DNA of 64,000 bases from a virus, in the IMG/VR virus record IMGVR_UViG_3300025096_002712, positions 42,291 to 106,290 of that record; one strand, given 5' to 3'. The notes beneath the pieces are model-generated. The model saw only the letters and a list, made by a program, of their open reading frames with translations. It did not search any database and had not been told where the DNA came from. This document shows positions 1 to 64,000 of this stretch, piece after piece. Made by a program: the position numbers and the translations under genes. The stretch's first letter is position 1; every line of letters starts with the position of its first letter.

Positions 1-2
1 TT

Positions 3-3000
3 ATTTTTGATGGTTCTGGAACTGCATATAGTGATGAGATAGTTCACCTTGGAGATGCAAGAAATCAAATAGCAAGTTGGTCATTAAGTACATCTCAAAT
101 TTCAAGTAATAATCTTATATTAGATTCGAGTGGAATCATACAAACATCAGATTTTGCAAGTGGTGTTAAGGGTTGGAGAATAACATCGGCAAATAATGGT
201 GAGGCAGAATTTGAAAAGGTTACTATTAGAGGAACATTGGCTACTACTGTATTTGAAAAAGAATCTGTAAGTGCCGTAGGTGGTCAATTATATGTAGCCA
301 ATTCAACTATTATATCACAATCAACACAACTAGCAGCATCAGATACGACAATGAGTGTTGCAAATGTAGGTGGGTTTACTGGTAGTTACAATAATAATAA
401 TGGGGAAGTTATATCTATTAAGAAAGTTACCGACACAGGATTTACAACAGAGTATGTTTTAATTCAAAGTGCATCAAGAGATAATCCTTCAAGTGATAAA
501 GATTTAAGAGGTAAGTTATATGTAGTTCGTGGATATAGTGGTTCAACACCAGCAGATAGTAGTTCTCTTGGAGATGCTGCACAATCAGCTCAGACTTATG
601 AAAATGGTCAAGTAATTGTTTCAACAGGTCGCGTCAATACTGGATATATTAGATTAAATGCTAATCCAAATGATACTACAACACCTTATATTGATATTGT
701 TGAAAGAACTGGTTCTGCAATTTATGATGTAAGTTTAAAGGCAAGACTTGGGGATTTAAGTGGTTTAAGTAGTGGATTATTATATGGAAATACTTCTCCT
801 GGATTTGGATTATTTACAGAAAATGTATTCTTACAAGGTGCCATAACAGCCACAACTGGTTCATTTACAGGAATTGTACATATCAGAACTGATGCAAGTA
901 ATCAGATAAAAATGGGTACTAATGTTAATGGTAACGCCGATGGATTTTCCTTAAATAATAATAACTTTTGGTATACGACTGGTGATTTTAGAGTAGGTGG
1001 TGCTAGTAGTAATTATTTTTACATATCTGGTTCTACAATAGATATAAAAACAGATACATTAGTTGCAAGTGGAAGTTCAATACAATTAAAAACACCAAAC
1101 TTTTATTTTGGTGATAGTTCCAATTATATAAGTGGAAGTGGTGGAAAAGTAGCAATAGTAAATACAGGTACAACAACCATAAGTGGAAGTGCAGTAAATA
1201 TCCAAACACCTAAGTTTTATTTTGGAAACTCTCAAAATTTCATAAGTGGTTCAAATGATAATATTAAAATACAAAGTTATGGTACTACAACATTAAGTGG
1301 AAGTGAAGTAACAATAGAAACTCCATCATTTTTCTTTGGTAAGAAAAGTACACAATTTGTAAGCGGCTCAAATGGTTATGTAGAAATAAGCTCGTCTAAA
1401 TTTCATATACAGGCAGATGGTGATGTCATAGCAAATAATATAACAGCGTCTAATATATCAATGTCAGGTGTTGTAAATGCCAGCGAAGGTGGTATTGGTG
1501 GTTGGGTTATAGGATCTAATAAGATTTATACAGGAACGAATGAAACTGTAAGTGGATATACATCAGCCAATGGAAGATTAATATTATCTTCAAGTGGTGC
1601 AATTCATGCAAAAGGATTTTATGTTACAAAAGGTGGAAATGCATCTTTTAGTGGTTCTATATCTTCAAGTGAAGGTAATATAGCTGGTTGGACAATAGAT
1701 GCAGATGAAATAAAATCACCTGGTAGTACGGTAGTATTAGACTCAGATTCGAGTAATGGACAAATAAAATTAGGTTCAGCAACAGCTCTTAATACTGGTG
1801 ATGGTATTTACATGGATGGTGGTGGTAACTTTAGAGCCGGCGACGCAAATGGTAAGAGAATTCAATGGGATGGTACTAATATAACAGTAAGTGCTTCTGA
1901 TTTCTTTTTCGGAGATAATTCAAATTATATAAGTGGAAGTGGTGGAAACTTAGCCATACAAAATACAGGTACAACAACTATAAGTGGAAGTGCAGTAAAT
2001 ATCCAAACACCTAAGTTTTTCATGGGTGGAAGTAGTCAATATGTTAGTGGATCCAATGGAAACATCGAAATCAGTTCTTCTAATTTCCATCTTTCATCAA
2101 GTGGTGATGTTACAATGGCGGGAACTATTACTGCAACCGAGGGAGCAATAGGTGGTTCTACTATAACATCCGACGCATTAGCTTATTCACCATATTGGAG
2201 AATATCATCTTCTGCAGATACATCAGATCCTGTATCATTTATATCATCAAGTGCATTTAAAGTATCGGCTGGTGGTAATATAACTGGTTCGAGTGTTTTA
2301 TTCGATGGTGGAAAAGTCGGTGGTTGGACAATTACAGAAAATCAATTAGAGGCCAATAATATTAAAATAAATGCAGCAAGTGGTTACATTGAAGCAGGAG
2401 AGTTGAGTAATGTTAATGATATTGATGACACATCAGTAGGATTTTTCGCAAATAAAGATGGTGAAGTACTAATTAAAGCTGGAACTTCCGCAAATAAAAA
2501 TTATATGCAGTTCAAAAATGGTACTTTAGATATCAATAGTGATAAAGTACATATCAGCGGAAGTCAGATAACATTGAAAACTCCTGATTTTTATTTTGGT
2601 GATAGTTCCAATTATATAAGTGGTAGTGGTGGAAACTTAGCCATAGTAAATACTGGAACCACAACCATAAGTGGAAGTGCAGTAACAATTGAAACACCAA
2701 GATTCTTTTTGGGTCAGAAAAGTACACAATATATAAGTGGTTCACTCGGAAATGTAGAGATTAGTTCTTCAAAATTTCATTTACAAGCAGATGGTGATGT
2801 CATAGCAAATAATATAACGGCATCTAATATATCAATGTCAGGTGTTGTAAATTCAAGTGCTGGTACAATTGGTGGATGGAAAATATTACCTGGGGTATTA
2901 AAATCACCTGGTGAGAATGTTATATTGTCCGCATCAAATGGTGGTTATATATCACTTGGTGCAACACCACCCATAACAGCATCAAGTGGTGTCGGTATAT

Positions 3001-4178
3001 TCCTATCTGGTTCAGGTGATTTATTAGTTGGCGATAGTGGTGGTAATAAGATTCAATATGATGCATCTGTAGGTTCTATTAATATGAAGTCTCGTACTTT
3101 TAATTTAGATGCAACAACAATAGTTGTGGATTCTGCTACAAATAATGGTAAAATGGCACTTGGTGGTACACCACCAACTTCTGTTGCATCAACAGTTACT
3201 GGAAGTTATCTTGATGGGTTTGGAAATGTTTTATTTAGACAGAGTGCAGATGATTATTTAAAATTTACCAATAGAAAGTTGGATATGCATGCTAAAAGCT
3301 TTTTCTTGGGTGGAGCATCACAATATGTAAGTGGAAGTGGTGGAAACTTAAAAATATATAGTACTGGAGATACAACACTTAGTGGAAGTTCTGTTACGGT
3401 AGAAACACCTAAGTTTTTCTTAGGTAAACAAGGTTCTCAATATGTAAGTGGAAGTAACAATCTTCTTGAGATAAGCTCATCTAAGTTTCATTTGAAAAAT
3501 GATGGTAGTGTTACAATGACTGGTAATGTTACTGCTACTACTGGAGAAATTGGTGGTTATGTAATAAGTAGTACAGCTATGTCTGCTTCATCAGGTGGTG
3601 TTATTATTACAACAAATGCAAATGCTGACATTTATCAAGGTGGTGGAGCCTATCTCGACAATGTACCATATATGTATGCAGAAAATGCTATATTTGGTGA
3701 TTGGGATAACTACTTTAGAGTTTTTGATGGTAGAATGTACGCAGGTAAAGGAATACAAACTCAGGGAATTTGGTTAGATGCAAATGATACGACCTTAAAA
3801 TTAGGTGCTGATAATCCAAAACTCATGACATACACATCTAAAACTGGAATATTCTTATCGGGATCTGGACATTTTAGAGTTGGTTCACCTACTGGTTCAA
3901 GGGTATCATTTGACACTACAAACCTTATAATAAGTACCAGTAATTTTGATGTTATAGGTGGTGCAGTAACCGCAAGCGCTGGTTCAATTGCAGACTGGAC
4001 AATTACGACATCAAGTTTGGAATCAAACACGGATGACCTTAGAGGACTTAAACTGAAACCAGGGGATAGAGTAGTTGGATACGGGCCCACGGCACATACA
4101 AAACAGACTATATCTGGTTCGTTTAGTTTTGGAGTTTTACCAACACCTCCAGGTGAAGGTGGCGGAATAGCTTGGTAA
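3..4178 (+). CDS. Large Ser/Gly-rich repeat-built tail fibre/virion structural protein (5'-truncated)
   Basis: Frame is open from position 3 (IFDGSG...GWRITSANNGEAEFEKVTIRGTLATTVFE), so the TTG at 237 is internal. Contains GxIGGW-type and TPxF(F/Y)xG-x-YISGS repeats typical of phage fibres and sits next to S74 fibre genes. Confidence 0.75.
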   Translation: MFDGSGTAYSDEIVHLGDARNQIASWSLSTSQISSNNLILDSSGIIQTSDFASGVKGWRITSANNGEAEFEKVTIRGTLATTVFEKESVSAVGGQLYVANSTIISQSTQLAASDTTMSVANVGGFTGSYNNNNGEVISIKKVTDTGFTTEYVLIQSASRDNPSSDKDLRGKLYVVRGYSGSTPADSSSLGDAAQSAQTYENGQVIVSTGRVNTGYIRLNANPNDTTTPYIDIVERTGSAIYDVSLKARLGDLSGLSSGLLYGNTSPGFGLFTENVFLQGAITATTGSFTGIVHIRTDASNQIKMGTNVNGNADGFSLNNNNFWYTTGDFRVGGASSNYFYISGSTIDIKTDTLVASGSSIQLKTPNFYFGDSSNYISGSGGKVAIVNTGTTTISGSAVNIQTPKFYFGNSQNFISGSNDNIKIQSYGTTTLSGSEVTIETPSFFFGKKSTQFVSGSNGYVEISSSKFHIQADGDVIANNITASNISMSGVVNASEGGIGGWVIGSNKIYTGTNETVSGYTSANGRLILSSSGAIHAKGFYVTKGGNASFSGSISSSEGNIAGWTIDADEIKSPGSTVVLDSDSSNGQIKLGSATALNTGDGIYMDGGGNFRAGDANGKRIQWDGTNITVSASDFFFGDNSNYISGSGGNLAIQNTGTTTISGSAVNIQTPKFFMGGSSQYVSGSNGNIEISSSNFHLSSSGDVTMAGTITATEGAIGGSTITSDALAYSPYWRISSSADTSDPVSFISSSAFKVSAGGNITGSSVLFDGGKVGGWTITENQLEANNIKINAASGYIEAGELSNVNDIDDTSVGFFANKDGEVLIKAGTSANKNYMQFKNGTLDINSDKVHISGSQITLKTPDFYFGDSSNYISGSGGNLAIVNTGTTTISGSAVTIETPRFFLGQKSTQYISGSLGNVEISSSKFHLQADGDVIANNITASNISMSGVVNSSAGTIGGWKILPGVLKSPGENVILSASNGGYISLGATPPITASSGVGIFLSGSGDLLVGDSGGNKIQYDASVGSINMKSRTFNLDATTIVVDSATNNGKMALGGTPPTSVASTVTGSYLDGFGNVLFRQSADDYLKFTNRKLDMHAKSFFLGGASQYVSGSGGNLKIYSTGDTTLSGSSVTVETPKFFLGKQGSQYVSGSNNLLEISSSKFHLKNDGSVTMTGNVTATTGEIGGYVISSTAMSASSGGVIITTNANADIYQGGGAYLDNVPYMYAENAIFGDWDNYFRVFDGRMYAGKGIQTQGIWLDANDTTLKLGADNPKLMTYTSKTGIFLSGSGHFRVGSPTGSRVSFDTTNLIISTSNFDVIGGAVTASAGSIADWTITTSSLESNTDDLRGLKLKPGDRVVGYGPTAHTKQTISGSFSFGVLPTPPGEGGGIAW
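1085..3490 (+). repeat. Intragenic modular repeats with near-identical DNA copies
   Basis: 1101-1135 equals 2589-2623 (35 nt identical); 1413-1478 vs 2787-2852 (66 nt, 2 mismatches); 1160-1218 vs 1961-2019 (1 mismatch). The protein unit TPxFFxGxxxxYISGSxGxxxI recurs in four blocks. Confidence 0.9.
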
Positions 4179-4222
4179 CATAATGAAAAAATTATTAATA
4201 TATATAATAAAGGAGTTTTAAA

Positions 4223-5608
4223 ATGGCACAAATTTTACCATTTAAATTAAATATTGAAACCGTAAAAGGCCATACAATATCATATGCAACATCATCATTT
4301 GCAAAAACAGATGAGGCCGGCCTTAGTGGATCTGTTATTTTAAGTAGAATAGATTCTATGCCTTCTATATCTTATAGTTCAAACGAAGTAATAGGAGGTG
4401 CAGCCTCACCGGCACACACTTTTTCACATGCAAATAATATTTGGATTTCTGCTTCAATGAATAGTACACATCACGGGTCAGGTTCAATTACATTTCATCA
4501 TACAGATTCATCGGATGTGAATGATAGATTAAAAAGATATAGATTTTTTGGTGATAAAGTATGTGCTGTTCTTGGATTACCTTCACGTCATTGGATATAT
4601 CCAGTCAATTTTCAATTGTCCGATGCAACTGGTGTAGCAAATTATTTTGCTGGGGATGTATCTGCAGACTCTTTGAATGTTGCAAATAGTTTTAATATGT
4701 CACCGCTAGCCTCATCTACATCACATGTCAGACTTAATGCTACATCAGGAAGTAATGATGTGTTTTTCTTAGTTTCAAGTGGATCAGGTGCCTTTCAAAA
4801 AAATATGATACAGATTGGGTATAATACAGATGATGATAAGTTTGTTATACGAGGTGGAACTGGAGAAAGTAGTCAAGGGGCTTATATTGATGATTTCATA
4901 AGTGTAACATCTAATTATGTCGATTCGTGGTATTTCAGACAAAAAGCAGTTACTGATTCTTATATAAAGCTTTATAGTGATAGTTTCACCTATAAATCAG
5001 AAGGTGAGGATTGTGTATATTTTGAGAAAATATCATCTAGCCCTCCAAGACGGAGATATAGGTTTGGTAATCCAGGCGTCAATGGTGTTCCTTCTGAAGT
5101 AGGCATTGAATCAGATTTCATTTTTTCTGCATCAGGATCTGCTAATGGTATGAATTATACAATTTGTGCTAAAGGTGAAAAAGATGAGGGTTTTGTTGGA
5201 ATACGAGAACAGAGTCCGTCTTATCCACTTGAAGTTTCCGAGCACGTTTCAAATATATCTATATACGCAGAATATGATGTAGCAGCTTATTCGGATATTA
5301 GAGTTAAAACGGATATAGAAACTATTACTGAACCATTAGATAAAGTATTAAAATTAAGAGGTGTTACTTTTAGAAGAACTGATGATAGTGCAAGTGATAG
5401 AGTAATGATGGGATTAATTGCACAAGAAACCGAACCTATTGTACCTGAAGTTGTTGTTACAAATGAAAATCCTGAAAGTGGTAAACGATATGGACATAAA
5501 TCAATTTCATATGGAAACCTTGTAGGATTATTAATAGAGGCAGTAAAAGAACAACAAGAACAAATAGAAGAATTAAAACAACAAGTAAAGGAGATAAAAG
5601 ATGGTTAA
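4223..5608 (+). CDS. Tail fibre protein with C-terminal peptidase S74 intramolecular chaperone
   Basis: YSDIRVKTDI...KLRGVTF...GLIAQE...VPEVV...YGNLVGLLIEAVKEQQEQIEELK; SD AAGGAG upstream. Confidence 0.85.
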   Translation: MAQILPFKLNIETVKGHTISYATSSFAKTDEAGLSGSVILSRIDSMPSISYSSNEVIGGAASPAHTFSHANNIWISASMNSTHHGSGSITFHHTDSSDVNDRLKRYRFFGDKVCAVLGLPSRHWIYPVNFQLSDATGVANYFAGDVSADSLNVANSFNMSPLASSTSHVRLNATSGSNDVFFLVSSGSGAFQKNMIQIGYNTDDDKFVIRGGTGESSQGAYIDDFISVTSNYVDSWYFRQKAVTDSYIKLYSDSFTYKSEGEDCVYFEKISSSPPRRRYRFGNPGVNGVPSEVGIESDFIFSASGSANGMNYTICAKGEKDEGFVGIREQSPSYPLEVSEHVSNISIYAEYDVAAYSDIRVKTDIETITEPLDKVLKLRGVTFRRTDDSASDRVMMGLIAQETEPIVPEVVVTNENPESGKRYGHKSISYGNLVGLLIEAVKEQQEQIEELKQQVKEIKDG

Positions 5609-5891
5609 ATGGGGTGGTAAAGAAAATACAATAATACCAAAATGTGTATGTCCAACAAGTGGAGTAATATATTTGTCTGAAATAAGACAAGAACTTGAAT
5701 CAACGAGTAATTCAAATGATTATGGTAATGGGCCATGGACTACTAATACGACAACATTAAAAAATTGTAATCTCTTCGTGTATGATAGTAGAAATACTAA
5801 TTCAGATGATTATCCAAATAGTTCAGAACCACATAAGATGACAGAGTGGTATAGTTATCATCATAACGCAACAAGTGGTATGGGGATGTAA
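5601..5891 (+). CDS. Small virion-associated protein (fibre-tip/attachment motif)
   Basis: PTSGVIYLSEIRQEL...PHKMTEWY resembles the PxSGx(I/L)SLxxI...P(H/I)xMSEFY motif of small proteins that follow S74 fibres; overlaps the upstream stop. Confidence 0.5.
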   Translation: MVKWGGKENTIIPKCVCPTSGVIYLSEIRQELESTSNSNDYGNGPWTTNTTTLKNCNLFVYDSRNTNSDDYPNSSEPHKMTEWYSYHHNATSGMGM

Positions 5892-6304
5892 TGAATAAAT
5901 TATTTCATAATAATAAAATTGAAGTTAGGGATTCATCTATACATGGACGAGGAGTTTTTGCAAAAGAAGATATTAAAAGTGGTGAAATCTTAGAAGAATG
6001 TCATTATATTGTGGTAGATGATGGTAATTCACACGATATGCCACTTTATAAATGGCGTCGTTTAACAGATAGTAATATACAAATTGATGAACGGAAATTT
6101 CAATGGCCTAAAGGTGAAGATTTTGAAAAATATACAATACCATTTGGATTTGGTACTATATACAATAGTGTATTAAACGAAGAAGAAAGAAGTGTTAATT
6201 GGGAAAATGATTTAGATAGAGATATTTATAGATTTTTTACAGTTAAAGATGTAAAAAAAGATGAAGAACTTTTATTATATTATCATAATGGCAAATTTAA
6301 ATAA
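5891..6304 (+). CDS. SET-domain protein (putative lysine methyltransferase)
   Basis: IEVRDSSIHGRGVFAKEDIKSGEILEEC...GFGTIYNS...KDVKKDEELLLYY. The canonical NHS motif reads NSV. Confidence 0.8.
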   Translation: MNKLFHNNKIEVRDSSIHGRGVFAKEDIKSGEILEECHYIVVDDGNSHDMPLYKWRRLTDSNIQIDERKFQWPKGEDFEKYTIPFGFGTIYNSVLNEEERSVNWENDLDRDIYRFFTVKDVKKDEELLLYYHNGKFK

Positions 6305-6319
6305 AAAGGGTAAATAGAA

Positions 6320-6763
6320 ATGGCTTTTACAGATAGAGGAGCATATTTAGATACATCGGAAAGGGTTCACATAGGTGGAACTGGTGATCCTTCTGTATCG
6401 TTGAAAGTAACAGGTGAAGTATATGTTACAAACAATATTACTGCCTATTATTCATCAGACATAAGTTTGAAAGATAATATCAGACCGATAGAAAGTGCCA
6501 TTTTTAAGGTCAAACAAATCAGAGGTGTTACCTTTGATTGGAATAAAAAATCAGGAAAAATTGAACAAGAAAAAGGTCATGATGTAGGTTTAATTGCACA
6601 AGAAGTTGAAAAGGTTTTACCAGAAGTTATTCAGATTCGTGAAGATGGAATCAAGGCAATTGCATATGAAAAGGTTGTACCACTATTAGTAGAAGCCATT
6701 AAAGAACAACAAACTCTTATTGAGGATTTATCAAATAGAATAAAGACATTAGAGGAAAGATAA
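6320..6763 (+). CDS. Mini-fibre with peptidase S74 chaperone
   Basis: About 45 aa N-terminal segment, then YYSSDISLKDNI...IRGVTFDW...VGLIAQEVEKVLPEVI...YEKVVPLLVEAIKEQQ. Confidence 0.85.
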   Translation: MAFTDRGAYLDTSERVHIGGTGDPSVSLKVTGEVYVTNNITAYYSSDISLKDNIRPIESAIFKVKQIRGVTFDWNKKSGKIEQEKGHDVGLIAQEVEKVLPEVIQIREDGIKAIAYEKVVPLLVEAIKEQQTLIEDLSNRIKTLEER

Positions 6764-7845
6764 TGGCACTACAAAGTGGATTTAAAATATTAGGTCTAAA
6801 TATTATAGATAGTGGTGGTGGTTATGGAACATCAAAAACTGGTAGTTTGAGAGCTAGAGATCCAGGTCAAGGAAATGGATTTTTAGGAAATTATTATTCT
6901 ACGGGTGGTAAAATAGTTTCTGCTTCAATATCAAATAAAGGTAAAAGTTATTCAAGTGGCTCTTGGGTACAACCGAACACGGCGATTAAAGGTGCAGTTA
7001 CTTCTATTTCAATTGGAACATATGCAGATCCAGCTACAGGATCTGGTTCAATAATATTACCAAACATTGGTATGGATATATCTATGAGTATATCTGATAT
7101 CAATAGAGAAAAGGGAATAGCAGCCACTACTGCAAATTCAGACATTCACGATTTATATGAAGATTTTTCATCAATAGCAGGTTCAGTTCATAGTGGTTTA
7201 GAGGGAAAACCAAATTTCGATTGGTGGCAAGGAGGTCCAGTTTCACAGTCAGCATCCCATCCTATAAGATTTGATGAATTTTATAATGCAAATTATTCAA
7301 TGTATGGTGGTGCAGGTTGTCTTGCAATAGGAACACCGATAACAATGGCAGATGGTTCTACTAAAAATGTAGAGGATGTAAATGTAGGGGATATGGTAAG
7401 GGCAGCAACAGTAAAAGGTATGCCATTAGATTTTGATGATGAAGATACTTGGTCTATTTGGACTGGTGTACCACACGGAAATCCACCTGGTTCAGTATGG
7501 GCTACCGCATATTATGATATACAAGAGATAAATCGAGTTACACCAGCAAGTGCGTCAGTTCAAGAGATTTATTTTGATTTTTATGATAATTATTATCTGA
7601 TAAATGGTTCTTTAAAGGCAACATATGAACATCCATTTTTTGTATTAAGAGATGGTAGTTATCATTTTAAAACAACAGCCAGTTTGTTACCTGGTGATAA
7701 GTTATTCAAAGATAATAACGAGTTTGAAGAAATAACATCACTTGAATTTGTACAAGAATCAATAGAAACAGTTAATCTTAATGTAGAAAATTTAGATGTT
7801 TATTTCGGTGGTGGTTATTTAATGCACAATGTTCATTCTAAATAG
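6763..7845 (+). CDS. Virion-associated protein with C-terminal Hint (BIL-type) domain
   Basis: Hint at 7318-7830: CLAIGTPITMADGSTKNVEDVNVGD...TYEHPF...VNLNVE...YFGGGYLMHN, followed only by VHSK-stop. Confidence 0.85.
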   Translation: MALQSGFKILGLNIIDSGGGYGTSKTGSLRARDPGQGNGFLGNYYSTGGKIVSASISNKGKSYSSGSWVQPNTAIKGAVTSISIGTYADPATGSGSIILPNIGMDISMSISDINREKGIAATTANSDIHDLYEDFSSIAGSVHSGLEGKPNFDWWQGGPVSQSASHPIRFDEFYNANYSMYGGAGCLAIGTPITMADGSTKNVEDVNVGDMVRAATVKGMPLDFDDEDTWSIWTGVPHGNPPGSVWATAYYDIQEINRVTPASASVQEIYFDFYDNYYLINGSLKATYEHPFFVLRDGSYHFKTTASLLPGDKLFKDNNEFEEITSLEFVQESIETVNLNVENLDVYFGGGYLMHNVHSK

Positions 7846-7853
7846 GAGTTATA

Positions 7854-8864
7854 ATGAGTTATGATGTTTATTACTCTACTGGAGGTGGTTCAGTAGTTTA
7901 TGGTGGAGCAGATATTTGGGTTAATAATTGGTTACGAGAAGTAGCCCCTAAATTAAATCATCCATCTAAATTACTAATTCATCGCCGTAGACCTGAAAAA
8001 GTAAAGGTAGAATTTGATTCACCAATAGAAGTTGTATGGCAAGGTGATCACCCAAAAGATTTCGAAGAAATAGCCTCGAAGGCTCGTAAGATTCATGTAT
8101 TACACGGATATTATACACCACATAGGATAATAGAAAGTAATAAAGATAAATTAGAATCAGTATGTATTCATGTATCAGTAGATTTATCGTTAAAGGCAGG
8201 ATTTCAATTAGGATTACCGAAGTTAATGCATTATGCAGCAAACGCATCTTGGGAAAAGAGAGTTTCAAAATGGGCAAAGAAGGTAGTGTGGATTGGGTTA
8301 GATAAGATTCCATTACATGATGAAGTAGGTATAATTGATTTACCAAATTATTACGAGTTTACACAAAATAAAAAAGTATGTATGAGTAATAAAGTTGGAT
8401 TTGCAGCAAGATGTGAAACTCGTAAATCACCACATTTCTTAGATGGTATTGATAGTTATTCTTTTACCGATCCAGAAGATTGGAGATGGTGGAAATTAAA
8501 TCTTGGGTTAGAGTTTAAAAATACTCGGTTATATCAATTTAAAAATAAAAATATTCATTGGTTTTTTAATAGAGAGGATTGGGGAATATCACATAGCTGT
8601 CATCTACATGAACCATTCGGTTATTCTATATTTCAAGCATTAGATTATGGAAAGTTACCTATATTACAAAAAGATTGGCTGTCAAACTATGATTATCCAT
8701 TCAGAGCTTTCAATAAGAAAGAGTTTGATGAACAATTACATAATATATCAGAGTTATCAGAGAAAGAAAGACAAGATTATTTGGATGGACTGAGAGATTA
8801 TTGTAGGAAGTATGATAATAAGGATGAATGGGTAGAGAAATATTTGGAAATATACAACGCATGA
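7854..8864 (+). CDS. GT-B fold glycosyltransferase (GT4-like)
   Basis: N-terminal GGADIWV; C-terminal HEPFGYSIFQALDYGKLPIL resembles the GT4 EPFG-x-EA-x-GxP motif; SD AGGAG. Confidence 0.7.
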   Translation: MSYDVYYSTGGGSVVYGGADIWVNNWLREVAPKLNHPSKLLIHRRRPEKVKVEFDSPIEVVWQGDHPKDFEEIASKARKIHVLHGYYTPHRIIESNKDKLESVCIHVSVDLSLKAGFQLGLPKLMHYAANASWEKRVSKWAKKVVWIGLDKIPLHDEVGIIDLPNYYEFTQNKKVCMSNKVGFAARCETRKSPHFLDGIDSYSFTDPEDWRWWKLNLGLEFKNTRLYQFKNKNIHWFFNREDWGISHSCHLHEPFGYSIFQALDYGKLPILQKDWLSNYDYPFRAFNKKEFDEQLHNISELSEKERQDYLDGLRDYCRKYDNKDEWVEKYLEIYNA

Positions 8865-8873
8865 TATTTATTA
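8865..8873 (+). promoter_or_regulatory. TATTTATTA promoter-like motif
   Basis: The same 9-mer occurs in intergenic gaps at 8865, 10470, 23118 and 59926. Confidence 0.5.
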
Positions 8874-8890
8874 ATAACACACAACACGGC

Positions 8891-8934: not shown

Positions 8935-8945
8935 GGAGAACTTTT

Positions 8946-51932: not shown

Positions 51933-51933
51933 A

Positions 51934-56699: not shown

Positions 56700-57975
56700 T
56701 AAATGGGGAGATTGGAATTATGATACAGGGAAGTTTGTTATTTATTCTTCTAAATTTAAAGATTTTAAATGTAGTTTAAATTATTTAGATGATGATGGCA
56801 ATTTTGGATTTTTAAATGAATCTACAGGTACAGATTATAAATATCATTTATGGTTTGTTCCATCAGATACAATATTTCAAAATCTTTATAACGAATTATT
56901 TTTAAGGGATTATCTAAATCGTGTTTTTCCAACGGCAGAAGAAACTTGGAATAATGAAAAGTTATGGATAGTAATTGACAGAAGAATGGAATCTTTAGAT
57001 ACTGAAGGTACGAAACAATTACTTAATCAATGTTCTAAGTATGGTTATAATATAGACAGAATAAAGTTTTTTTCTAATTCTTATTTTAAGGATCAAAGTT
57101 TACTTATTAATTTTCCCTTTGAGTTTTATCAGAGAACACTTAGATTTAAATTATCAGATGAAGAATTTGGTGAGAGATTAAGGGGTAGAGATATTGCAAT
57201 TAATTATGAGTTCGAAGGACATTCAAGTGATTATAAAAAGTGGTTACTTAATTTAGATAATGTAGAATCAAGACCTTACACTTTTTTATCATATGCTGGA
57301 AGTTTACCATCACATAAGTTACTACTATTATCAGAATTGTATAGAAGAAAATTAGATAAATATTGTTTGATATCTGCATTAAATAGAGATGATGATGATA
57401 TAAATACTTTGAGAGAAAGGGTAAGAGAGTTTCAACCAAATGGAGTAAAAGGTCTTGATGAAAGTAAAATTTTAGATATGTTACCAATATATCTCGATAT
57501 AGATAGAGAACTTTCTAAAAATGAAACCGTTGGTTATGATGTATCATTACCTGATGGAGAAGGTTCGTCTGAAATAGGAGATTCACAACCTAAGAAACAT
57601 CACCATAATCAGACTTATTTTTATTTGGCAAATGAAACTTCATTTGATTGTGCAAGAATAACATCTCATATTAAATCTGTAATATTACATCCGATGATTT
57701 TTAACGCAGGAGCAGGTACTTTAGAATTATTTAAATCTTGGGGATTCAAAAGTTTTCCAAATATATTTGACGAGTCTTATGATGAAATAGAAGATGATAT
57801 AGAACGACATAAGTTTCTCGTAAAGGAAATAGAAAGAGTCTGTCTATTACCAGAAGAAGAAAAACATAAATTATATTTAGAATCAATTCCTACAATAAAG
57901 TATAATCAAAAAGTTTTTATTAACTTTGATGTAGAAAATATGGTTTTGGATATGTTTAATAAAATAGTGAGTTAG
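56692..57975 (+). CDS. GT10-like paralogue family (8 of 9; divergent subtype)
   Basis: TYF.LANETSF; LHPMI; GFKSFPNIFDESYD; close paralogue of 58647. Confidence 0.45.
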   Translation: MHNKWGDWNYDTGKFVIYSSKFKDFKCSLNYLDDDGNFGFLNESTGTDYKYHLWFVPSDTIFQNLYNELFLRDYLNRVFPTAEETWNNEKLWIVIDRRMESLDTEGTKQLLNQCSKYGYNIDRIKFFSNSYFKDQSLLINFPFEFYQRTLRFKLSDEEFGERLRGRDIAINYEFEGHSSDYKKWLLNLDNVESRPYTFLSYAGSLPSHKLLLLSELYRRKLDKYCLISALNRDDDDINTLRERVREFQPNGVKGLDESKILDMLPIYLDIDRELSKNETVGYDVSLPDGEGSSEIGDSQPKKHHHNQTYFYLANETSFDCARITSHIKSVILHPMIFNAGAGTLELFKSWGFKSFPNIFDESYDEIEDDIERHKFLVKEIERVCLLPEEEKHKLYLESIPTIKYNQKVFINFDVENMVLDMFNKIVS

Positions 57976-57976: not shown

Positions 57977-58660
57977 ATGAATAATAGAATATTAATTACT
58001 GGAACTAATGGTTCACTTGGATCATTTTTGTCCAGTAAATATGAAAATCCGATTTGTATTACAAGAGAAAATCCACTTACAGATGATATTATTTCTGAAG
58101 GAGTGGATACGATAATACATTGTGCATTTAATTCTAAATTGGAAGAATTACAAAAAGTGTCTAAAGAGTGTTACGAGGATAATGTTGATTTAACTTATTC
58201 TTTGGTAAAAGTACCACATAGAAGATTTATTTATATTTCAAGTATTCAAATAGCACCAAAATCACTAACACCATATGCAATATTTAAAAAAATTGCTGAA
58301 CATATTGTACAAAATAATTGTAAAAATTATTTGATATTACGAGTATCGTGTTTTTTACCACAACCAAAAAAACAGAGTTCATTTTTTAAAATTGCAAATG
58401 GGGAAGATATAACACTAACAGAAGATTCAGTTAATGATGTAATATATTGTGAAAACATATACGATTCCATAGAATCAAATTTAAGTGGTGTTAAGTATTT
58501 AGTATCGAGGAAAACCATTACAACTAAAGAAACAGCAGAATTATTTAATAGTAGTACCAAGTTTGGTAATTATCATTATGATGTTGGTAGTTTACAGAGT
58601 GATATTGATATAGGAAAGACAAGTGAGGAAATTTTAAAGGAGTTTTTTGAAGTTGAGTGA
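57977..58660 (+). CDS. Short NAD-dependent epimerase/reductase (SDR)
   Basis: ITGTNGSLGS; IIHCA; YISS; PYAIFK. Confidence 0.75.
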   Translation: MNNRILITGTNGSLGSFLSSKYENPICITRENPLTDDIISEGVDTIIHCAFNSKLEELQKVSKECYEDNVDLTYSLVKVPHRRFIYISSIQIAPKSLTPYAIFKKIAEHIVQNNCKNYLILRVSCFLPQPKKQSSFFKIANGEDITLTEDSVNDVIYCENIYDSIESNLSGVKYLVSRKTITTKETAELFNSSTKFGNYHYDVGSLQSDIDIGKTSEEILKEFFEVE

Positions 58661-59921
58661 TAAAATAAAATATGATTTCGGTGGTGATGATTTTATTCTT
58701 CCTTATGATAGATTTAAGGATTTTAAGTGTAGTAAACATTCGTGGGATGAAATGTATCAACAGACATTTGTTGTTGAACCTACTAATAGGGATTACAAAT
58801 ATCACTTGTGGTTTGTTGATCCCGATTTTTTATTTGATAGTGAAATTGATGAATATCAAACAGATGAATATATTAAAAAAACATTTCCATCAGTTAAAGA
58901 TACTTGGGATGATGAAAAGTTGTGGGTTATTATAGATAGAAAAAGTGAGGCACTACCAGAAAGTTCTGCACAAGATTATCTTGAAAAAATATGCAAATTT
59001 GGATATAATAAAGATAGGATAAAATTTATTTCGAGTTCTTATGAACCTGGTATTTTAACGGTCAATTTTTGTTGGGAATTATTTATCCGTGCATTGAGAT
59101 TTAGATTACCAGATTATATGTTTGGTCGAAAATTTGTGCAAATGGATAGAGGAATGAATTGGGAATATTATGAAAAATATGAAGATAGTATTCAATATAA
59201 AAAATGGTTACTTGATTTAGATAGTGATGAGTTGTTAGAACCACGTCCTTATACTTTCCTGAATTATAATGGAACTTTACCAGGTCATAAATTGACACTC
59301 TTGTCGGAAATATATAAAAGAAAATTAGAAAACTATTTTTTATTATCGGCAACAAATAGAGATAGGACCTCTATTGATACTTTAAAGGAAAGATTATATC
59401 AGTTTAATCCAGACGCCGATGGAAAGATTTTTGATTTATTACCAATATATCTTGATATAACAAAGGATATGGATAGTGAATTGCAAGTATTCAGACATGA
59501 TAAATATAGTTCCGAGATAGGAAATTCTAATCCTAAAAAAGTTCATTATAATAAAACTTACTTTAGTGTTATTAGTGAAACTTCTTTTGATGTGACAAGA
59601 TTGGTTGGTGATCCTTGGAAGGCAATGATATTACATCCATTTATATTGAACGCGGGGATGGGAAGTTTAAAATTATTTAAATCGTTTGGATTTAAAAGTT
59701 TTCCAAATGTGTTTGATGAGTCTTATGATGATATAGAGGATAATTTGGAACGGAGTAGATTTATAATAGATGAAATAGAAAGAGTTTGTTTAGTGAGTGA
59801 AAAAGAGAAGCATAAATTATATTTAGATTCTATACCTATTATAAAATATAATCAAAAACTTTTATGTGAGTTTGATGTAGAGAGTATGATTTTTAATATT
59901 TTTAATGAACTTGTTAGTTAA
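58647..59921 (+). CDS. GT10-like paralogue family (9 of 9; divergent subtype)
   Basis: DYKYHLWFV shared with 56692; TYFSVISETSF; GFKSFPNVFDESYD. Confidence 0.45.
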   Translation: MKLSDKIKYDFGGDDFILPYDRFKDFKCSKHSWDEMYQQTFVVEPTNRDYKYHLWFVDPDFLFDSEIDEYQTDEYIKKTFPSVKDTWDDEKLWVIIDRKSEALPESSAQDYLEKICKFGYNKDRIKFISSSYEPGILTVNFCWELFIRALRFRLPDYMFGRKFVQMDRGMNWEYYEKYEDSIQYKKWLLDLDSDELLEPRPYTFLNYNGTLPGHKLTLLSEIYKRKLENYFLLSATNRDRTSIDTLKERLYQFNPDADGKIFDLLPIYLDITKDMDSELQVFRHDKYSSEIGNSNPKKVHYNKTYFSVISETSFDVTRLVGDPWKAMILHPFILNAGMGSLKLFKSFGFKSFPNVFDESYDDIEDNLERSRFIIDEIERVCLVSEKEKHKLYLDSIPIIKYNQKLLCEFDVESMIFNIFNELVS

Positions 59922-59924: not shown

Positions 59925-59944
59925 ATATTTATTAGTATGAAAAA
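59925..59944 (+). promoter_or_regulatory. ATATTTATTAGT-ATG motif, identical to 23117-23136
   Basis: Exact 20-nt match; lies directly before the ATG at 59937. Confidence 0.55.
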
Positions 59945-61949
59945 CCTTTTAATATGTGAATTTAGTAATATTTTCGGATACGGCGAAGTTCGTTTGCCAT
60001 ATAGTACTGGTGTAATTTGGAGTCATTGTAGGACGGATGAAATTATATCCAAAAACTATGATGTTAGTAATTGGATATATTGGAAAGATGAAAAGAAAAA
60101 TATAATGGAACACATTACAGAGAAACCAGATGTGGTATTCTTTTCTTGTAATGTATGGTCTTGGACTTTATCTAATGAAGTTGCTGAATTAATAAAACAG
60201 ACATGGCCAGATTGTGTGGTTATTTATGGTGGACAAATGCCACCACGTTCTAACAATACAAGATGGGTTAGAAGAAATCCATCAATATATGATTTTTATA
60301 AAAACCGACCATATGTAGATATTATTGCACATCACGAAGGGGAAGAAACTACAAGAGAGTTGTTAATAGAATTATTAGAGGATAAACCAGATTTAAGTAA
60401 AATTTTAGGGATTTCATATAAAAATGAAGATTTGACTACGAGTATAAATCTACAAAGAGATAGAATTAAGGATTTAAATTCAATGCCAAGTCCTTACTTG
60501 GATGGAACATTTGATAAATTAATTTCCAACAAACCTAAACACATACGAAAATTTAAAATGACGGTTGAACCATCAAGAGGTTGTCCATACGCGTGTACAT
60601 TTTGTGAAATTGGGGATACACTTTATACTAAGATAGAAAGACATTCTATTGAAAAAATATGTGCAGAATTAGATTGGGCATCAAAGAAGGAAATAGAGTT
60701 TATAGATTGTGCAGATTCTAATTTTGGTTTATTTCCAGAACATAAAGATATGGTTGAGTATATGGGTAAGAAAAAAAGAGAAACTGGTTACCCTATTAGA
60801 TTTTCAGTATCTTGGTCTAAAGGACATGCCGATAGGGTAATGAATATAGCTAAAATAATGAAGGAAGAAGAACTTGATAAAACAGGTGTAACCATAGCAT
60901 TACAATCGATGAATCCAGACACACTCAAGGCAATAAAAAGAAAAAATATCGATAATGGTAAATTGGCAGAATTTTTGAAAAAGTATGAATTAGACCATCT
61001 TGATACTTATGTAGAATTGGTAATGGGATTACCATTGGAAACATTCGATTCGTGGGTTGATGGATTGTGTTATTTGATGGAGATAGGTTTACACACTTCA
61101 GCAAAAATGTTTCCTTGTGCAGCACTACCAAATACACCAATAGCAGAAAAAGAATATGGAGAATTGTATGGTATTCAGTATGCACCCATCTATGAATCAA
61201 ATCATACACCATATAATCCAGAGGCACAATCTGGTGGTTGGGATATTGTTATTGGAACTAAGGCCATGCCACATACGGATTGGAAACGTGCATATATGTT
61301 TAAATGGTTGTCAGGATGTTTTCATTGGTTGGGATATACACAATTCATAAGTAGATATTTGAGAAATATGAATGGTGTTTCATATAGGGATTTTTATTGT
61401 AATCTATTAGAATTTGCAGAAAATAATGAAGATACATTCATTGGTTCAGAATTAAAAATAACAATGGATAATTTAGAATACGCAATTGCAAACCAATCTT
61501 CGTTGGGCAGAGTAATTGAAGAAGTAGATGATGATAGTGATAAAAATCAACTTATTTGGGATTATGACGAGGCGACGGCAATATACTTAAATTTAGGAAA
61601 TAAGGATAGATTTTATAGAGAATTGAGAGATTTTTTAAAGACAAATTTGAGTTTATCTTTTGATGATGACTTGTGGGATGATATTGTAAAATACCAATCT
61701 AATGCCATCATAAATCCGTATGATGAATACCCATATATAGATGATTTTAATTATAATATTCATAATTGTACTATGGGAACTTCTGATACATTAAAAAATG
61801 GTGGGTATAAACTTGAATTTAATCAAAGTTGGGCAGACAATCCTAAAAACAAAAAGGGATATTTTGGTGATAAGTTTCAATTTGCATGTGAGAAGTTATG
61901 GTGGTTGAGAAATCGTGGTGAATATAAGGCAAAGGTACGGGAGTTATAG
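59937..61949 (+). CDS. Cobalamin-binding radical SAM protein (LPYSTG subfamily)
   Basis: RLPYSTGVIW; HEGE; SRGCPYACTFC; ADSNFG. Confidence 0.88.
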   Translation: MKNLLICEFSNIFGYGEVRLPYSTGVIWSHCRTDEIISKNYDVSNWIYWKDEKKNIMEHITEKPDVVFFSCNVWSWTLSNEVAELIKQTWPDCVVIYGGQMPPRSNNTRWVRRNPSIYDFYKNRPYVDIIAHHEGEETTRELLIELLEDKPDLSKILGISYKNEDLTTSINLQRDRIKDLNSMPSPYLDGTFDKLISNKPKHIRKFKMTVEPSRGCPYACTFCEIGDTLYTKIERHSIEKICAELDWASKKEIEFIDCADSNFGLFPEHKDMVEYMGKKKRETGYPIRFSVSWSKGHADRVMNIAKIMKEEELDKTGVTIALQSMNPDTLKAIKRKNIDNGKLAEFLKKYELDHLDTYVELVMGLPLETFDSWVDGLCYLMEIGLHTSAKMFPCAALPNTPIAEKEYGELYGIQYAPIYESNHTPYNPEAQSGGWDIVIGTKAMPHTDWKRAYMFKWLSGCFHWLGYTQFISRYLRNMNGVSYRDFYCNLLEFAENNEDTFIGSELKITMDNLEYAIANQSSLGRVIEEVDDDSDKNQLIWDYDEATAIYLNLGNKDRFYRELRDFLKTNLSLSFDDDLWDDIVKYQSNAIINPYDEYPYIDDFNYNIHNCTMGTSDTLKNGGYKLEFNQSWADNPKNKKGYFGDKFQFACEKLWWLRNRGEYKAKVREL

Positions 61950-61953
61950 TTTT

Positions 61954-62742
61954 ATGGATATAATGAAGATACCATCTAAATGGAATCGGGTTTTTAGAAA
62001 AGAAGTAATACGGTTATTATCAGAAAGAAATATAATTGATAAACAATTTTTTGATTTAGAAAAGTTACATTTATGTGTTAATAAAGAATTATTTGATTAT
62101 GGACCTGATATTGGTAATTATGCTGGATTAGAAAATAGATTAACTATTCAGATGTATGAAACAGATGATATTTTTTTAGAGACTTATTATAAGTTTTTAC
62201 ATGATTTAAAAATAGAGTTAGGATTTGATTTTTATTTTCAATTAACACCTACTTTTAGATTTCACGCACCAAAATCAGAAAATGAGGATAGATTTCCAGA
62301 ATTTCATTCAGATAGACAAAAAGGACATCCACCAGAGGAAATTAATATTTGGTTTTCATTAACTGAAAATAATCATTCCAATTTTTACATTATTGACAAA
62401 GAAAAAAGTAATAAATGGGTAGAGGATTATGATTCCGATTATAAAAAGTTTGGAGAAGTTTCTTATAATTCAAAACATGGAGTAGATGATAGTTTTAGTG
62501 AAATGGGATTTAGTTTGGCAGAAGAAGTTGAATCAACAATTAATGATATATATGTTTTTGATTCTGATTGTATACATACAGCAGTTCCAAGAAAAGAAGA
62601 AACCAGAGTTTCAATGGATATAAGAATTAATCCAGTTGAAAAATTTGTTGATGGTTATGTGGGGAGTGGAAATATGCAGGCAGAGTTTAGACCTGGTGGA
62701 AGATTTGGTTACTATGAAAAATCAATAGGAAAGATAATATGA
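61954..62742 (+). CDS. 2OG-Fe(II)-type oxygenase, StrG-like
   Basis: FQLTPTFRFHAP; FHSD...GHPPEEINIW; HTA...TRVSMDIR. Start placed at ATG 61954 after GGAG. Confidence 0.6.
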   Translation: MDIMKIPSKWNRVFRKEVIRLLSERNIIDKQFFDLEKLHLCVNKELFDYGPDIGNYAGLENRLTIQMYETDDIFLETYYKFLHDLKIELGFDFYFQLTPTFRFHAPKSENEDRFPEFHSDRQKGHPPEEINIWFSLTENNHSNFYIIDKEKSNKWVEDYDSDYKKFGEVSYNSKHGVDDSFSEMGFSLAEEVESTINDIYVFDSDCIHTAVPRKEETRVSMDIRINPVEKFVDGYVGSGNMQAEFRPGGRFGYYEKSIGKII

Positions 62743-62864
62743 AAAATATAAAACCTTTTTGGGATGAAGAATATAAAAAATTAGATTATCGAAAAGAAAT
62801 TTTCAATGATGAGTATGTCATAGAAGAATTTAACAATAAATTAGTATCAATATTTAAAATATGA
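62739..62864 (+). CDS. 41-aa small ORF, possibly a gene remnant (not in ORF track)
   Basis: MKNIKPFWDEEYKKLDYRKEIFNDEYVIEEFNNKLVSIFKI-stop; ATGA overlaps at both ends. Confidence 0.6.
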   Translation: MKNIKPFWDEEYKKLDYRKEIFNDEYVIEEFNNKLVSIFKI

Positions 62865-63754
62865 GAATATTAATAACAGGTGGAGCAGGTTATCTTGGTT
62901 CTAAATTAACAGAAACACTTTTAAGTCAAGAACATAATGTAATTGTATATGATAATTTATTTTTTGGTTCAGTAGGAATAATTCCATTTTTAGATAATCC
63001 AAAATATAAATTAATTAAAAATACAATAAATAATCTTGAATTAATAGAGGCCGTTGTAAAGGATGTAGATTATGTTATTCATTTGGCAGCAATAGTAGGA
63101 GAACCAAGTTGTAAACAATATGAAAGTTCGGTATATGGTGTAAATTCAGGAGCCACATCATGGATTAGTAAATGTGCATATAACTATGATATACCATTAT
63201 TATTTTTAAGCACTTGTAGTAATTATGGGAAAACTGATGAAGTAGTAACAGAAGATTCACTATTAGAACCACTTGGGTTATATGCAGACTCAAAAATACA
63301 GGCAGAAGAAATTGTATTAGATAACAAACAGTTGGTATTGAGAATGTCTACATTATTTGGAGTGAGTTATAGAGTTAGATATGATATAACAATAAATGAG
63401 TTTGTATATCAGTATTATAGGGATAAATTGTTAAAAGTTTATGGTGAAGATACTTGGCGACCATATCTTCATGTTCAAGATGCATGTAATATGATTATTA
63501 AATGTATGGAAAAAGATTTACGGGGTGTTTATAATGTGGGATTTAATAATTTAAACTATCAAAAGAAAGAAATTGTGAATGCAATAGTAGAATATCTTGG
63601 AGACGGTAAAATTGAATATGTTGATTTTGATGATCCAAGAGACTACCAAGTCAATTTTGATAAAATACAAAATGAATTGAATTGTCAATATAAGTTTTCA
63701 CTTGAAGATGGTATCCGTGAGTTATATGAAACTATTCAACGTGGAATGGTGTAA
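62861..63754 (+). CDS. NAD-dependent epimerase/dehydratase (extended SDR)
   Basis: ITGGAGYLGS; HLAAIVG; STCSNYG; YADSK; paralogue of 36827. Confidence 0.92.
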   Translation: MRILITGGAGYLGSKLTETLLSQEHNVIVYDNLFFGSVGIIPFLDNPKYKLIKNTINNLELIEAVVKDVDYVIHLAAIVGEPSCKQYESSVYGVNSGATSWISKCAYNYDIPLLFLSTCSNYGKTDEVVTEDSLLEPLGLYADSKIQAEEIVLDNKQLVLRMSTLFGVSYRVRYDITINEFVYQYYRDKLLKVYGEDTWRPYLHVQDACNMIIKCMEKDLRGVYNVGFNNLNYQKKEIVNAIVEYLGDGKIEYVDFDDPRDYQVNFDKIQNELNCQYKFSLEDGIRELYETIQRGMV

Positions 63755-64000
63755 TGAAAGTAGAATATTATTACGAGAGAACACAAAGGGCATTAGATGA
63801 AAATAAAATGATTGCTCCTATTAGTGTGGAAATTGATTTGACTAATGTATGTTATCAAAAGTGTTATTATTGTAATGTAGAACAATTTAGAGCTGAAAAT
63901 CCAGATAAAGGAACTACTGAAGATTATTTGAAATTAATATCTTCATTACCAAAGGAAACAAAAGATATTACTTTTGCCGGTGGTGGAGAACCACTTGATA
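63754..64000 (+). CDS. Radical SAM protein (3'-truncated; not in ORF track)
   Basis: MKVEYY...PISVEIDLTNVCYQKCYYC...ITFAGGGEP; TAATG overlap; runs off the window edge. Confidence 0.85.
   Translation, partial: MKVEYYYERTQRALDENKMIAPISVEIDLTNVCYQKCYYCNVEQFRAENPDKGTTEDYLKLISSLPKETKDITFAGGGEPLD

Follow-up and report, generated by a model that had tools for sequence, protein, structure and literature searches.

Here we report a computational analysis of a 64-kb stretch of DNA (the window), the 3' part of the 106,290-bp IMG/VR virus record IMGVR_UViG_3300025096_002712, in which genes for fibre-like tail proteins run into a long island of glycan synthesis and tailoring enzymes. All 57 of the open reading frames (ORFs) of at least 100 aa that tile the window lie on the plus strand; its GC content is about 30%, and it holds no tRNA genes. 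The CheckV completeness estimate for the record, 45%, puts the whole genome at roughly 240 kb. Sequencing runs of 16 studies contain a near-identical phage, and no RNA data set was listed among these runs. From position 10500 onward the window encodes enzymes only, in about 50 contiguous genes that reach the contig end and continue past it, so that this part measures at least 53.5 kb. An earlier interpretation made from the letters alone (the sequence-only reading) had placed a soluble island of more than 53 kb directly behind the fibre genes, and this description was confirmed.

The phage is an uncultured marine jumbo myovirus, distantly T4-like, whose kin are Microcystis phage Mel-JY01 and the Flavobacterium Immutovirus phages. 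Its phage origin follows from the IMG/VR listing, the T4-type baseplate and the terminase, portal and protease genes of a collinear relative. The 42 kb of the record upstream of the window encode gp6-like (phrog_6) and gp10-domain T4-type baseplate proteins, a primase of the DnaG type, an SbcC-like nuclease and several fibre-like proteins. The baseplate protein shares 46% identity with its counterpart in Mel-JY01 and 40% with those of both the Flavobacterium Immutovirus phages and LR756508, a 484-kb uncultured huge phage. The collinear relative, an 80.8-kb IMG/VR record (G003), follows the window gene by gene, starting at the end of a giant fibre-like protein and finishing at the gene at 61915, with 52-98% identity for the genes that have a counterpart; the counterpart of 37789 is a longer form of 493 aa with 63% identity. 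Its enzyme-only island of about 55 kb is followed, in order, by a 2-oxoglutarate (2OG)-like gene, an AAA_33 kinase, a CCA-adding enzyme, genes without assignment, a T4-type large terminase, a T4 gp20 portal (252 bits) and a prohead protease. This portal shares 54% identity with its counterparts in Mel-JY01 and phage immuto, and only about 25% with a cyanomyophage portal. The contig is thus viral, and a cellular origin is refuted by the baseplate genes together with the head genes of G003.

The majority of gene junctions in the window touch or overlap (-1, -4 or -11 nt), and gaps of 44-282 nt interrupt the run at 4178, 5608, 8864, 10442, 28978, 46283 and 62742. A terminator-like hairpin with a T-run lies at 8900-8914, directly 3' of the gene 7854-8864; the stretch from the fibre genes to the island has no other site of this kind. 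A single co-oriented run from fibres into glycan enzymes, as first described, therefore stands with regard to orientation, but the gaps and the hairpin speak against one translationally coupled unit. A scan for sigma-70 promoters gave background levels, and the T4 late-promoter sequence TATAAATA had no placement in the intergenic gaps of the window. The 282-nt gap behind the first fibre gene holds a 96-aa ORF (5601-5891) and is not truly intergenic, and the gap that separates the first DUF6071 gene from the GT92 gene is filled by a 34-codon ORF (MIKWIKYLWFKV...DPFIYK, at about 28975-29079), which overlaps both.

No part of an export route was found. A Kyte-Doolittle hydropathy scan with a 19-residue window gave a credible transmembrane segment in none of the 57 window proteins; only two values exceeded 1.6, both within Rossmann and thiamine pyrophosphate (TPP) folds. 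When the plus-strand ORFs of the island and its flanks were scanned in eight relatives (G003, L010, L013, L014, L020, L023, L028 and L031), no transmembrane protein appeared apart from a small number of short ORFs, 95-227 aa long, that each have a single hydrophobic segment. Nothing transporter-like was seen in the upstream 42 kb, and no exporter family was found in a sample of flanking genes scanned against Pfam. The multi-pass membrane parts that mark a Wzx/Wzy- or ABC-dependent O-antigen or capsule locus are thus missing from the available DNA, and the island enzymes are all predicted to be soluble. The statement that this locus lacks an initiating phosphoglycosyl transferase, a flippase, a Wzy polymerase and an ABC exporter proved correct for the island and flanks here and could be extended to the eight relatives.

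We counted 17 glycosyltransferase (GT) candidates, close to the approximately 18 GT-like genes of the sequence-only reading, at unequal levels of support: three GT7-LamG proteins, one GT92, one weak GT2, nine GT-B paralogs, one GT4-like and two fucosyltransferase (FucT)-like proteins. The three GT7-LamG paralogs, mutually 31-35% identical and carrying a lectin-like LamG domain, all exceed the Pfam gathering scores of both domains by which CAZy GT7 membership is judged (Glyco_transf_7N 46-88 bits, cut-off 27; 7C 60-76 bits, cut-off 23), with Laminin_G_3 also above its cut-off; no homologs of these fusions were found among GenBank phages. The GT92 assignment likewise agrees with the CAZy family definition, at 87.5 bits to PF01697 and a gathering score of 23.

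The largest group, a family of nine GT-B paralogs here called A1, has no Pfam match and no homologs among GenBank phages, and its profile returned nothing meaningful from PDB sequences; its 493 metagenomic homologs, Tara sequences included, are all unnamed. In an AlphaFold model of the member at 37789 (pLDDT 60 overall, above 80 in the C-terminal half) only GT-B transferases were matched, among them OtsA (E 1.5e-4), T4 AGT (Z 11.3), FUT11 (9.6), a chlorovirus GT (9.5) and FUT9 (9.4). FUT11, FUT9, FUT13 and the Helicobacter pylori FucT are among many GT-B structural matches of the family, at Z 7.6-9.6, and no GT10 sequence match was obtained; a stretch 'TE..(S/T)EKI.K' in A1 presumably resembles the GT10 motif. 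The FucT-like pair at 25820 and 35789 is so named on three grounds: the product of 25820 has an Atlas language-model score of 0.95 to FUT8/NodZ/O-FucT clusters, both proteins share a conserved 'HIRTGN' motif with a C-terminal D..LLSK...S.F.E block, and their cyanophage homologs, 31% identical, are annotated as GDP-fucose protein O-fucosyltransferase. The product of 25820 had no Pfam or PDB sequence match, no Pfam-labelled homolog was found for either protein, and a search with the A4 profile returned unnamed homologs only.

One GT candidate stands apart from the island, within the fibre module. The product of 7854-8864 has no Pfam, NCBIfam or PDB sequence match, and its AlphaFold model, built from an alignment of 20 homologs, is of high quality (pLDDT 93.4); the top Foldseek matches are all GT4-type GT-B transferases (E 3e-10, TM-score 0.66), for example a methylmannose-polysaccharide mannosyltransferase, tll1591, PimA, WaaG and BshA. 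An EX7E-like motif is conserved among the homologs, and the top Atlas clusters are of the AGT family. LR756508 carries a 37%-identical homolog at the same place, after homologs of the primase and SbcC genes, flanked on one side by a homolog of the Hint/DUF642 gene at 8946 and on the other by a fibre-like protein; this phage is without the large island, and its portal gene lies only about 16 kb beyond. This pairing of a GT with fibre and tail-tip genes, kept where the island is absent, is the best evidence, of an indirect kind, that a GT may act on the fibre apparatus.

The fibre arm itself (3-10442) contains two genes with S74 chaperone domains and two with C-terminal Hint domains, which are contiguous and co-oriented with the island in both the window and G003. 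The 3375-aa protein whose end opens the window is called a fibre on account of its size, repeats and neighbours. It is one of two giant ORFs without a Pfam domain on the record (G000:C1:11270-19804 and 36341-46468; 2844 and 3375 aa), and it lies downstream of the primase and SbcC genes, so that replication genes divide the fibre-like genes into two blocks. The sequence-only reading had drawn attention to SGS-rich structural proteins, and the enrichment is real: the pattern [ST][GAS]S occurs 93 times in the 3375-aa protein against 33.5 expected (z = 11), is raised in the other fibre-like proteins (z 2.4-7) and is almost missing from the enzymes. These occurrences fall in recurring strand-turn units ('YVSGSNGNIEISSSNF', 'FISGS', 'ITGSxV'). 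The Hint signature in the products of 6763 and 8946 comprises Cys1, preceded by a YGG linker, the motif TYEH or TREH, and a terminal HN with only 4-7 residues behind it (in the 6763 product TYEH, with 4 residues after HN); these ends are probably self-cleaving C-terminal modules that act alongside the S74 chaperones. A hedgehog-like thioester transfer to a nucleophile other than water, such as a glycan, is conceivable and purely speculative.

Enzymes that would supply unusual sugars are also encoded (Table 1). The island encodes six short-chain dehydrogenases/reductases (SDRs), two of which, at 51922 and 54440, are nearest to GDP-fucose synthase at scores below its cut-off; NCBIfam gave no equivalog-level names, and the sole score to pass a cut-off was that of the subfamily of nucleoside diphosphate (NDP)-sugar dehydrogenases. 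The TPP-dependent E1 pair is a candidate for a two-carbon branching activity in the synthesis of a branched-chain sugar, which would be unusual in a phage. No nucleotidyltransferase is encoded in the island, and primary NDP-hexoses would therefore be supplied by the host.

A further group consists of tailoring enzymes; about ten ORFs are left without an assignment. Seven complete radical S-adenosylmethionine (SAM) genes, four of them with B12 domains, and one partial gene were counted, with one PhyH-type and three 2OG-type oxygenases. The 822-aa radical SAM protein has 2035 metagenomic homologs, mostly with PF04055 and the JGI name 'organic radical activating enzyme', and the partial gene at the contig end encodes a fragment 98.8% identical to the N-terminus of L010:5827-6879, which matches PF04055 (E 1e-19). 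The B12-radical-SAM paralogs are essentially absent from GenBank phages (one weak match), and homologs of the carbamoyltransferase occur in 148 phage records, mainly of cyanophages. Four DUF6071 paralogs share the SGNH-like conserved blocks GCSF, GxGND and D..GHP..H and are candidate O-acyl esterases or transferases. PDB sequence searches with the DUF6071 profile, the 822-aa protein and the product of 52898 gave nothing meaningful, the last drawing a single marginal match that is formyltransferase-like (E 0.016). Methyl, carbamoyl and hydroxyl tailoring, all part of the first description, are borne out by domain matches, and acyl transfer is suggested by the SGNH-like motifs. In phage immuto a cob(I)alamin adenosyltransferase gene (L102:33588-34589) adjoins the terminase, which may be relevant to the use of cobalamin in this phage group, given the four B12-domain radical-SAM genes of the window.

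Table 1. Coordinates of the features annotated in the 64-kb window
Position	Strand	Feature	Basis
3-4178	+	C-terminal 1391 aa of 3375-aa giant fibre-like protein (start G000:C1:36341), 5'-open in window	No Pfam domain
4223-5608	+	Fibre/spike protein, C-terminal Peptidase_S74 intramolecular chaperone	PF13884, E 7.6e-15
5891-6304	+	SET-domain (lysine methyltransferase-type) protein between two S74 fibre genes	PF00856, E 1.9e-8
6320-6763	+	Small Peptidase_S74 chaperone-domain protein, paralog of 4223 C-terminus	PF13884, E 8.6e-17
6763-7845	+	Tail-region protein, C-terminal Hint domain, paralog of 8946	Weak Hint Pfam matches
7854-8864	+	GT-B (GT4-like) glycosyltransferase inside fibre module	AlphaFold 2 and Foldseek
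8946-10442	+	Tail-region protein, DUF642 carbohydrate-binding-like and C-terminal Hint domains	Pfam
10500-11210	+	SAM methyltransferase, first gene of enzyme-only island	Methyltransf_24 (Pfam)
11200-13668	+	822-aa radical SAM enzyme	Weak Pfam match
14384-15238	+	Weak GT2-like candidate	Glyco_tranf_2_4, 25.6 bits, below cut-off of 27.5
15235-20035	+	Three GT7 (beta-4-galactosyltransferase-type)-LamG paralogs (15235-16716, 17055-18536, 18533-20035) and a 107-aa ORF	Pfam
20035-21825	+	Radical SAM enzyme	Pfam
21828-23117	+	GT-B family A1, member 1 of nine paralogs, no family name
33068-34366, 37789-39120, 40263-41381, 43940-45049	+	GT-B family A1 members	Paralogy
45042-46283, 55362-56699, 56692-57975, 58647-59921	+	GT-B family A1 members	Paralogy
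23129-25099	+	B12-binding radical SAM enzyme; close paralogs 42072-43985, 59937-61949; distant paralog 34326-35792	Pfam
25089-25808	+	PhyH-type Fe/2OG dioxygenase	Pfam
25820-26779	+	Fucosyltransferase-like candidate; paralog 35789-36817	Atlas similarity, motif
26770-28065	+	NDP-sugar 6-dehydrogenase (UDP-glucose dehydrogenase type)	Pfam; TIGR03026, 194.2 bits, cut-off 189.8
28055-28978	+	GT92 glycosyltransferase	PF01697, E 1.5e-24
29076-31575	+	Three DUF6071 paralogs; fourth at 39014-39760	Pfam DUF6071
31575-33065	+	NodU/TobZ-type O-carbamoyltransferase	Carbam_trans_N and Carbam_trans_C
36827-37789	+	SDR-type NDP-sugar epimerase/dehydratase/reductase	Pfam, NCBIfam
51922-52908, 54440-55387, 57977-58660, 62861-63754	+	Other SDRs	Pfam, NCBIfam
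46412-51932	+	Deoxy-, amino- and branched-sugar block: 46412 NDP-hexose 4,6-dehydratase; 48029 RmlC-like cupin; 49037 and 49609 split TPP E1 alpha/beta-like pair (49037-50154); 50123 DegT/RfbH-like pyridoxal phosphate (PLP) enzyme; 51306 2OG oxygenase; two further ORFs	Pfam, NCBIfam
61915-62742	+	'Sporadic carbohydrate cluster' 2OG-Fe(II) oxygenase-like protein; weaker relative 41368-42069	TIGR04324, E 9.8e-11, below cut-off
63754-64000	+	Start of radical SAM gene, cut by contig end	CxxxCxxC motif

Comparison of near relatives revealed a mosaic structure of the island. The sugar-nucleotide core is 80-98% identical among them, and cassettes of GT-B, SGNH-like and radical-SAM genes are gained, lost, reordered or replaced. 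The nine GT-B paralogs of the window have a mean identity of 66% to their counterparts in G003, compared with 89% for the NDP-sugar enzymes (Mann-Whitney p = 0.0006). Fast GT-B divergence together with cassette mosaicism is typical of a surface determinant exposed to diversifying pressure, whichever surface that may be. The island is missing in the closest cultured relatives, immuto and Mel-JY01.

Our preferred reading, to which we give a little less than even confidence, is that the island glycosylates the phage's own fibre and tail-tip proteins in the cytoplasm. Host NDP-hexoses would serve as the starting material and would be converted in the cytoplasm to uronic, 6-deoxy, amino, branched and probably C-methylated sugars by the dehydrogenase, the 4,6-dehydratase, the SDRs, the cupin, the PLP enzyme, the TPP pair and the radical-SAM/B12 enzymes. 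Some 17 soluble GTs would then assemble these sugars into a complex glycan, which carbamoyl, methyl, hydroxyl and possibly acyl transfer would decorate. The most likely acceptor would be the fibre and tail-tip proteins, with the GT4-like product of 7854 a candidate for an early step, and the host-recognition apparatus would end up with a glycan coat that varies between strains. We favour this reading because the machinery is soluble throughout, the fibre genes are contiguous with the island in two collinear genomes, the 7854 gene keeps its fibre neighbours where the island is absent, the GT7 enzymes are fused to lectin-like domains, and mycobacteriophages and giant viruses offer precedents. 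Of the cytoplasmic virion glycan first envisaged, the phage origin, the soluble enzymes, the lack of export parts, the fibre linkage (present also in G003) and the placement of the 7854 homolog in LR756508 have found support. In its most far-reaching form, in which about a quarter of the roughly 240-kb genome would be a self-contained cytoplasmic factory for protein glycosylation, whose 17 soluble GTs, among them the new nine-paralog GT-B family and the lectin-fused GT7 enzymes, and eight radical-SAM editors give the giant fibres a coat of glycan that is specific to the strain and heavily modified by C-methyl and carbamoyl groups, the reading is more tentative still.

Several points weigh against glycosylation of the virion. 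What we observe is the gene content, the soluble nature of the products, the viral origin, the link to the fibre genes and the mosaic variation; the acceptor, every substrate and the order of the steps are what we infer. In lipid-linked pathways, too, the GTs are soluble or peripheral proteins, so that missing phage membrane proteins are compatible with the use of host WecA, Wzx and WaaL, and the hyperplastic regions of T4-like phages also gather auxiliary genes that have no link to the virion. None of the GTs could be placed in a known protein-initiating family. Since immuto and Mel-JY01 do without the island, it is dispensable for virion assembly in this lineage. The [ST][GAS]S pattern was considered as a glycosylation sequon and dropped, its enrichment being explained by the recurring structural repeat of the fibres. 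Finally, comparable islands have been interpreted in print as modifying the host O-antigen (PMC7029224, PMC7824862).

On that published view, a lipid carrier of the host would receive a novel or modified glycan of the O-antigen or capsule type, made by the phage enzymes with the help of the host initiating transferase, flippase and ligase or exporter; superinfection would thereby be blocked, or progeny kept from adsorbing to infected cells and debris. Such remodelling is in our judgement the less likely account of this locus and still one of real weight. It is how fibre-linked GT islands of pelagimyophages and cyanomyophages have been read (PMC7029224; PMC7824862; PMC12801897); UDP-glucose dehydrogenase, RmlC-like, DegT/RfbH-like, Fcl-like and carbamoyltransferase genes are typical of O-antigen and capsule loci, whose GT content is mosaic in the same way, and receptor masking would account for the linkage to fibre genes as well. 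However, the approximately 59 kb of island plus flanks in nine contigs contain neither an initiating phosphoglycosyl transferase nor a flippase, a polymerase, a ligase or an ABC transporter, an unrelated host export machinery would have to accept the product of 17 GTs, and the 7854 gene is kept with fibre-like genes in the island-free LR756508. Known phage seroconversion systems, moreover, consist of a few membrane-bound enzymes and not of a full pathway.

Two other products have to be weighed. A soluble glycosylated natural product or free oligosaccharide, made by a cluster of the aminoglycoside or saccharide-antibiotic kind and acting on the host or on competitors, is suggested by the B12-radical-SAM methylases, the TobZ/NodU-type carbamoyltransferase, the DegT aminotransferase, the TPP pair and the 2OG oxygenases, all hallmarks of sugar secondary metabolism, and Iyer et al. 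suggest that jumbo cyanophages carry a secondary-metabolite cluster (PMC7824862). We consider it improbable here, as the window holds no pathway for an aglycone or cyclitol core, no resistance gene and no exporter, 17 GT candidates far exceed the need of such products, and the tight association with fibre genes would be left unexplained. More improbable still is the glycosylation of modified phage DNA bases by some or all of the GTs as an evasion of restriction. Phage GTs do place diverse glycans on DNA (Pyle 2024, as cited in PMC12619734), the GT-B models resemble the T4 alpha- and beta-glucosyltransferases among many other GT-B enzymes, and the top Atlas clusters of 7854 point the same way; but neither 7854 nor the A1 family has a Pfam AGT (PF11440) or BGT match, the likeness is one of fold only, and in structure 7854 is matched better by GT4 polysaccharide enzymes. 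The island is located with fibre and head genes and not with nucleotide metabolism, and its deoxy, amino and branched sugar pathways and 17 GTs go beyond known DNA glycans. No gene of the thymidylate synthase/hydroxymethylase family occurs on the five fragments searched, a weak argument as these are incomplete.

Virion glycosylation by virus-encoded enzymes has precedents. Giant viruses (chlorovirus capsid and mimivirus fibril glycans) bring their own pathways for rare NDP-sugars and their own soluble GTs, with which complex glycans are built in the cytoplasm on virion proteins; each clade has its particular gene set, in clusters of some ten to a few dozen genes, and the hosts are eukaryotic. 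The chlorovirus GT among the structural matches of the A1 model marks a resemblance at the level of fold only. To our knowledge mycobacteriophages are the sole phage system with glycans shown on virion proteins; their operons reportedly hold few GTs, the glycans sit on the C-termini of capsid and tail-tube proteins, and the hosts are actinobacterial. The system described here shares with them soluble GTs whose genes adjoin structural genes, an arrangement found in the window, G003 and LR756508; no sequence relationship between the two emerged, though no search was aimed at one. Virion glycosylation in mycobacteriophages is ascribed to Freeman 2023 in the papers that cite it (PMC12619734, PMC12801897).

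Comparable but smaller fibre-linked islands have already been described. The host recognition cluster (HRC) that Zaragoza-Solas et al. 2020 defined in pelagimyophages and cyanomyophages is a hypervariable part of the structural region, on average 44.6 kb long in pelagimyophages with fibres included, which mixes fibres, GTs, lipopolysaccharide (LPS)-type sugar genes and radical-SAM cassettes and was read by its authors as modifying the host O-chain (PMC7029224). Our locus resembles it as a big, hypervariable island in the structural region of a T4-like marine myophage, with cassettes that vary among close relatives; fibre genes, GTs, LPS-type enzymes including UDP-glucose 6-dehydrogenase and radical-SAM cassettes are found in both, and the under-recruitment of HRCs in metagenomes due to their variability is listed as a further likeness. 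It differs in its flanks, which are primase and SbcCD genes upstream and kinase, CCA enzyme, terminase and portal genes downstream, whereas an HRC extends from VrlC to gp14 (VrlC itself was not searched for). It also differs in lineage, its nearest phages being Mel-JY01, immuto and LR756508 and not Kyanoviridae or pelagiphages, in size, the enzyme-only part (here and in G003) alone exceeding the mean of a whole HRC, and in its dominant GTs, which are an unnamed GT-B family, GT7-LamG and GT92 here and GT8 in the HRC.

The 'LPS' clusters of jumbo cyanophages count 15-22 genes (Iyer et al., PMC7824862; S-SCSM2R paper, PMC12801897), and the 13 GTs of S-SCSM2R were called possibly the highest number in a marine phage (PMC12801897). 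These LPS or cell-wall clusters (P-SSM2, S-SCSM1 and S-SCSM2R) likewise contain NDP-sugar epimerases and dehydratases, RmlC-like cupins, carbamoyltransferases and polymorphic GT paralogs, but the island described here is larger, with its about 50 genes, 17 GT candidates and 8 radical-SAM genes compared with about 15-22 genes and at most 13 GTs. The size of the average HRC and the GT number of S-SCSM2R nevertheless temper any idea that the scale is unprecedented. The island is of the same sort as the known fibre-linked islands and departs from them in its T4-like lineage, flanks, larger size, GT families and B12-radical-SAM paralogs.

Few parts of the genomes of abundant marine myophages are as large and as variable as the fibre-linked GT islands, and the standing assumption is that they modify the host O-antigen. 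The locus described here is an extreme and clean case, with about 50 contiguous soluble enzymes, nine contigs without a membrane component and a fibre-linked GT kept without the island, and therefore makes the alternative of glycosylated fibres concrete and testable. An answer on the target would alter views of host range, virion stability and 'auxiliary metabolic genes' in ocean phages; if the virion-coating factory is real, the 'LPS genes' of marine phage host recognition clusters would be genes for decorating the virion and not the host surface. The nine-paralog GT-B family with its hundreds of marine homologs, the GT7-LamG fusions outside eukaryotes and the phage-borne B12-radical-SAM set are attractive targets for enzymology.

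A few further observations concern relatives of the phage. A 3.9-kb scaffold of a metagenome-assembled genome assigned to Crocinitomicaceae (L089) carries a fragment 84% identical to the 4,6-dehydratase of the island; in line with the kinship to Flavobacterium phages, this is a weak hint, too weak to use, of a marine host among the Flavobacteriales. In two relatives (L099:14286-18412 and L014:10958-17470) the island is followed by an AAA_33/zeta-like kinase and a CCA-adding enzyme with an HD domain, in L014 additionally by a 951-aa protein with a cytidylyltransferase-like domain, and at the equivalent place phage immuto encodes a NadR-type enzyme. These genes behind the island look like a module for tRNA repair and NAD metabolism.

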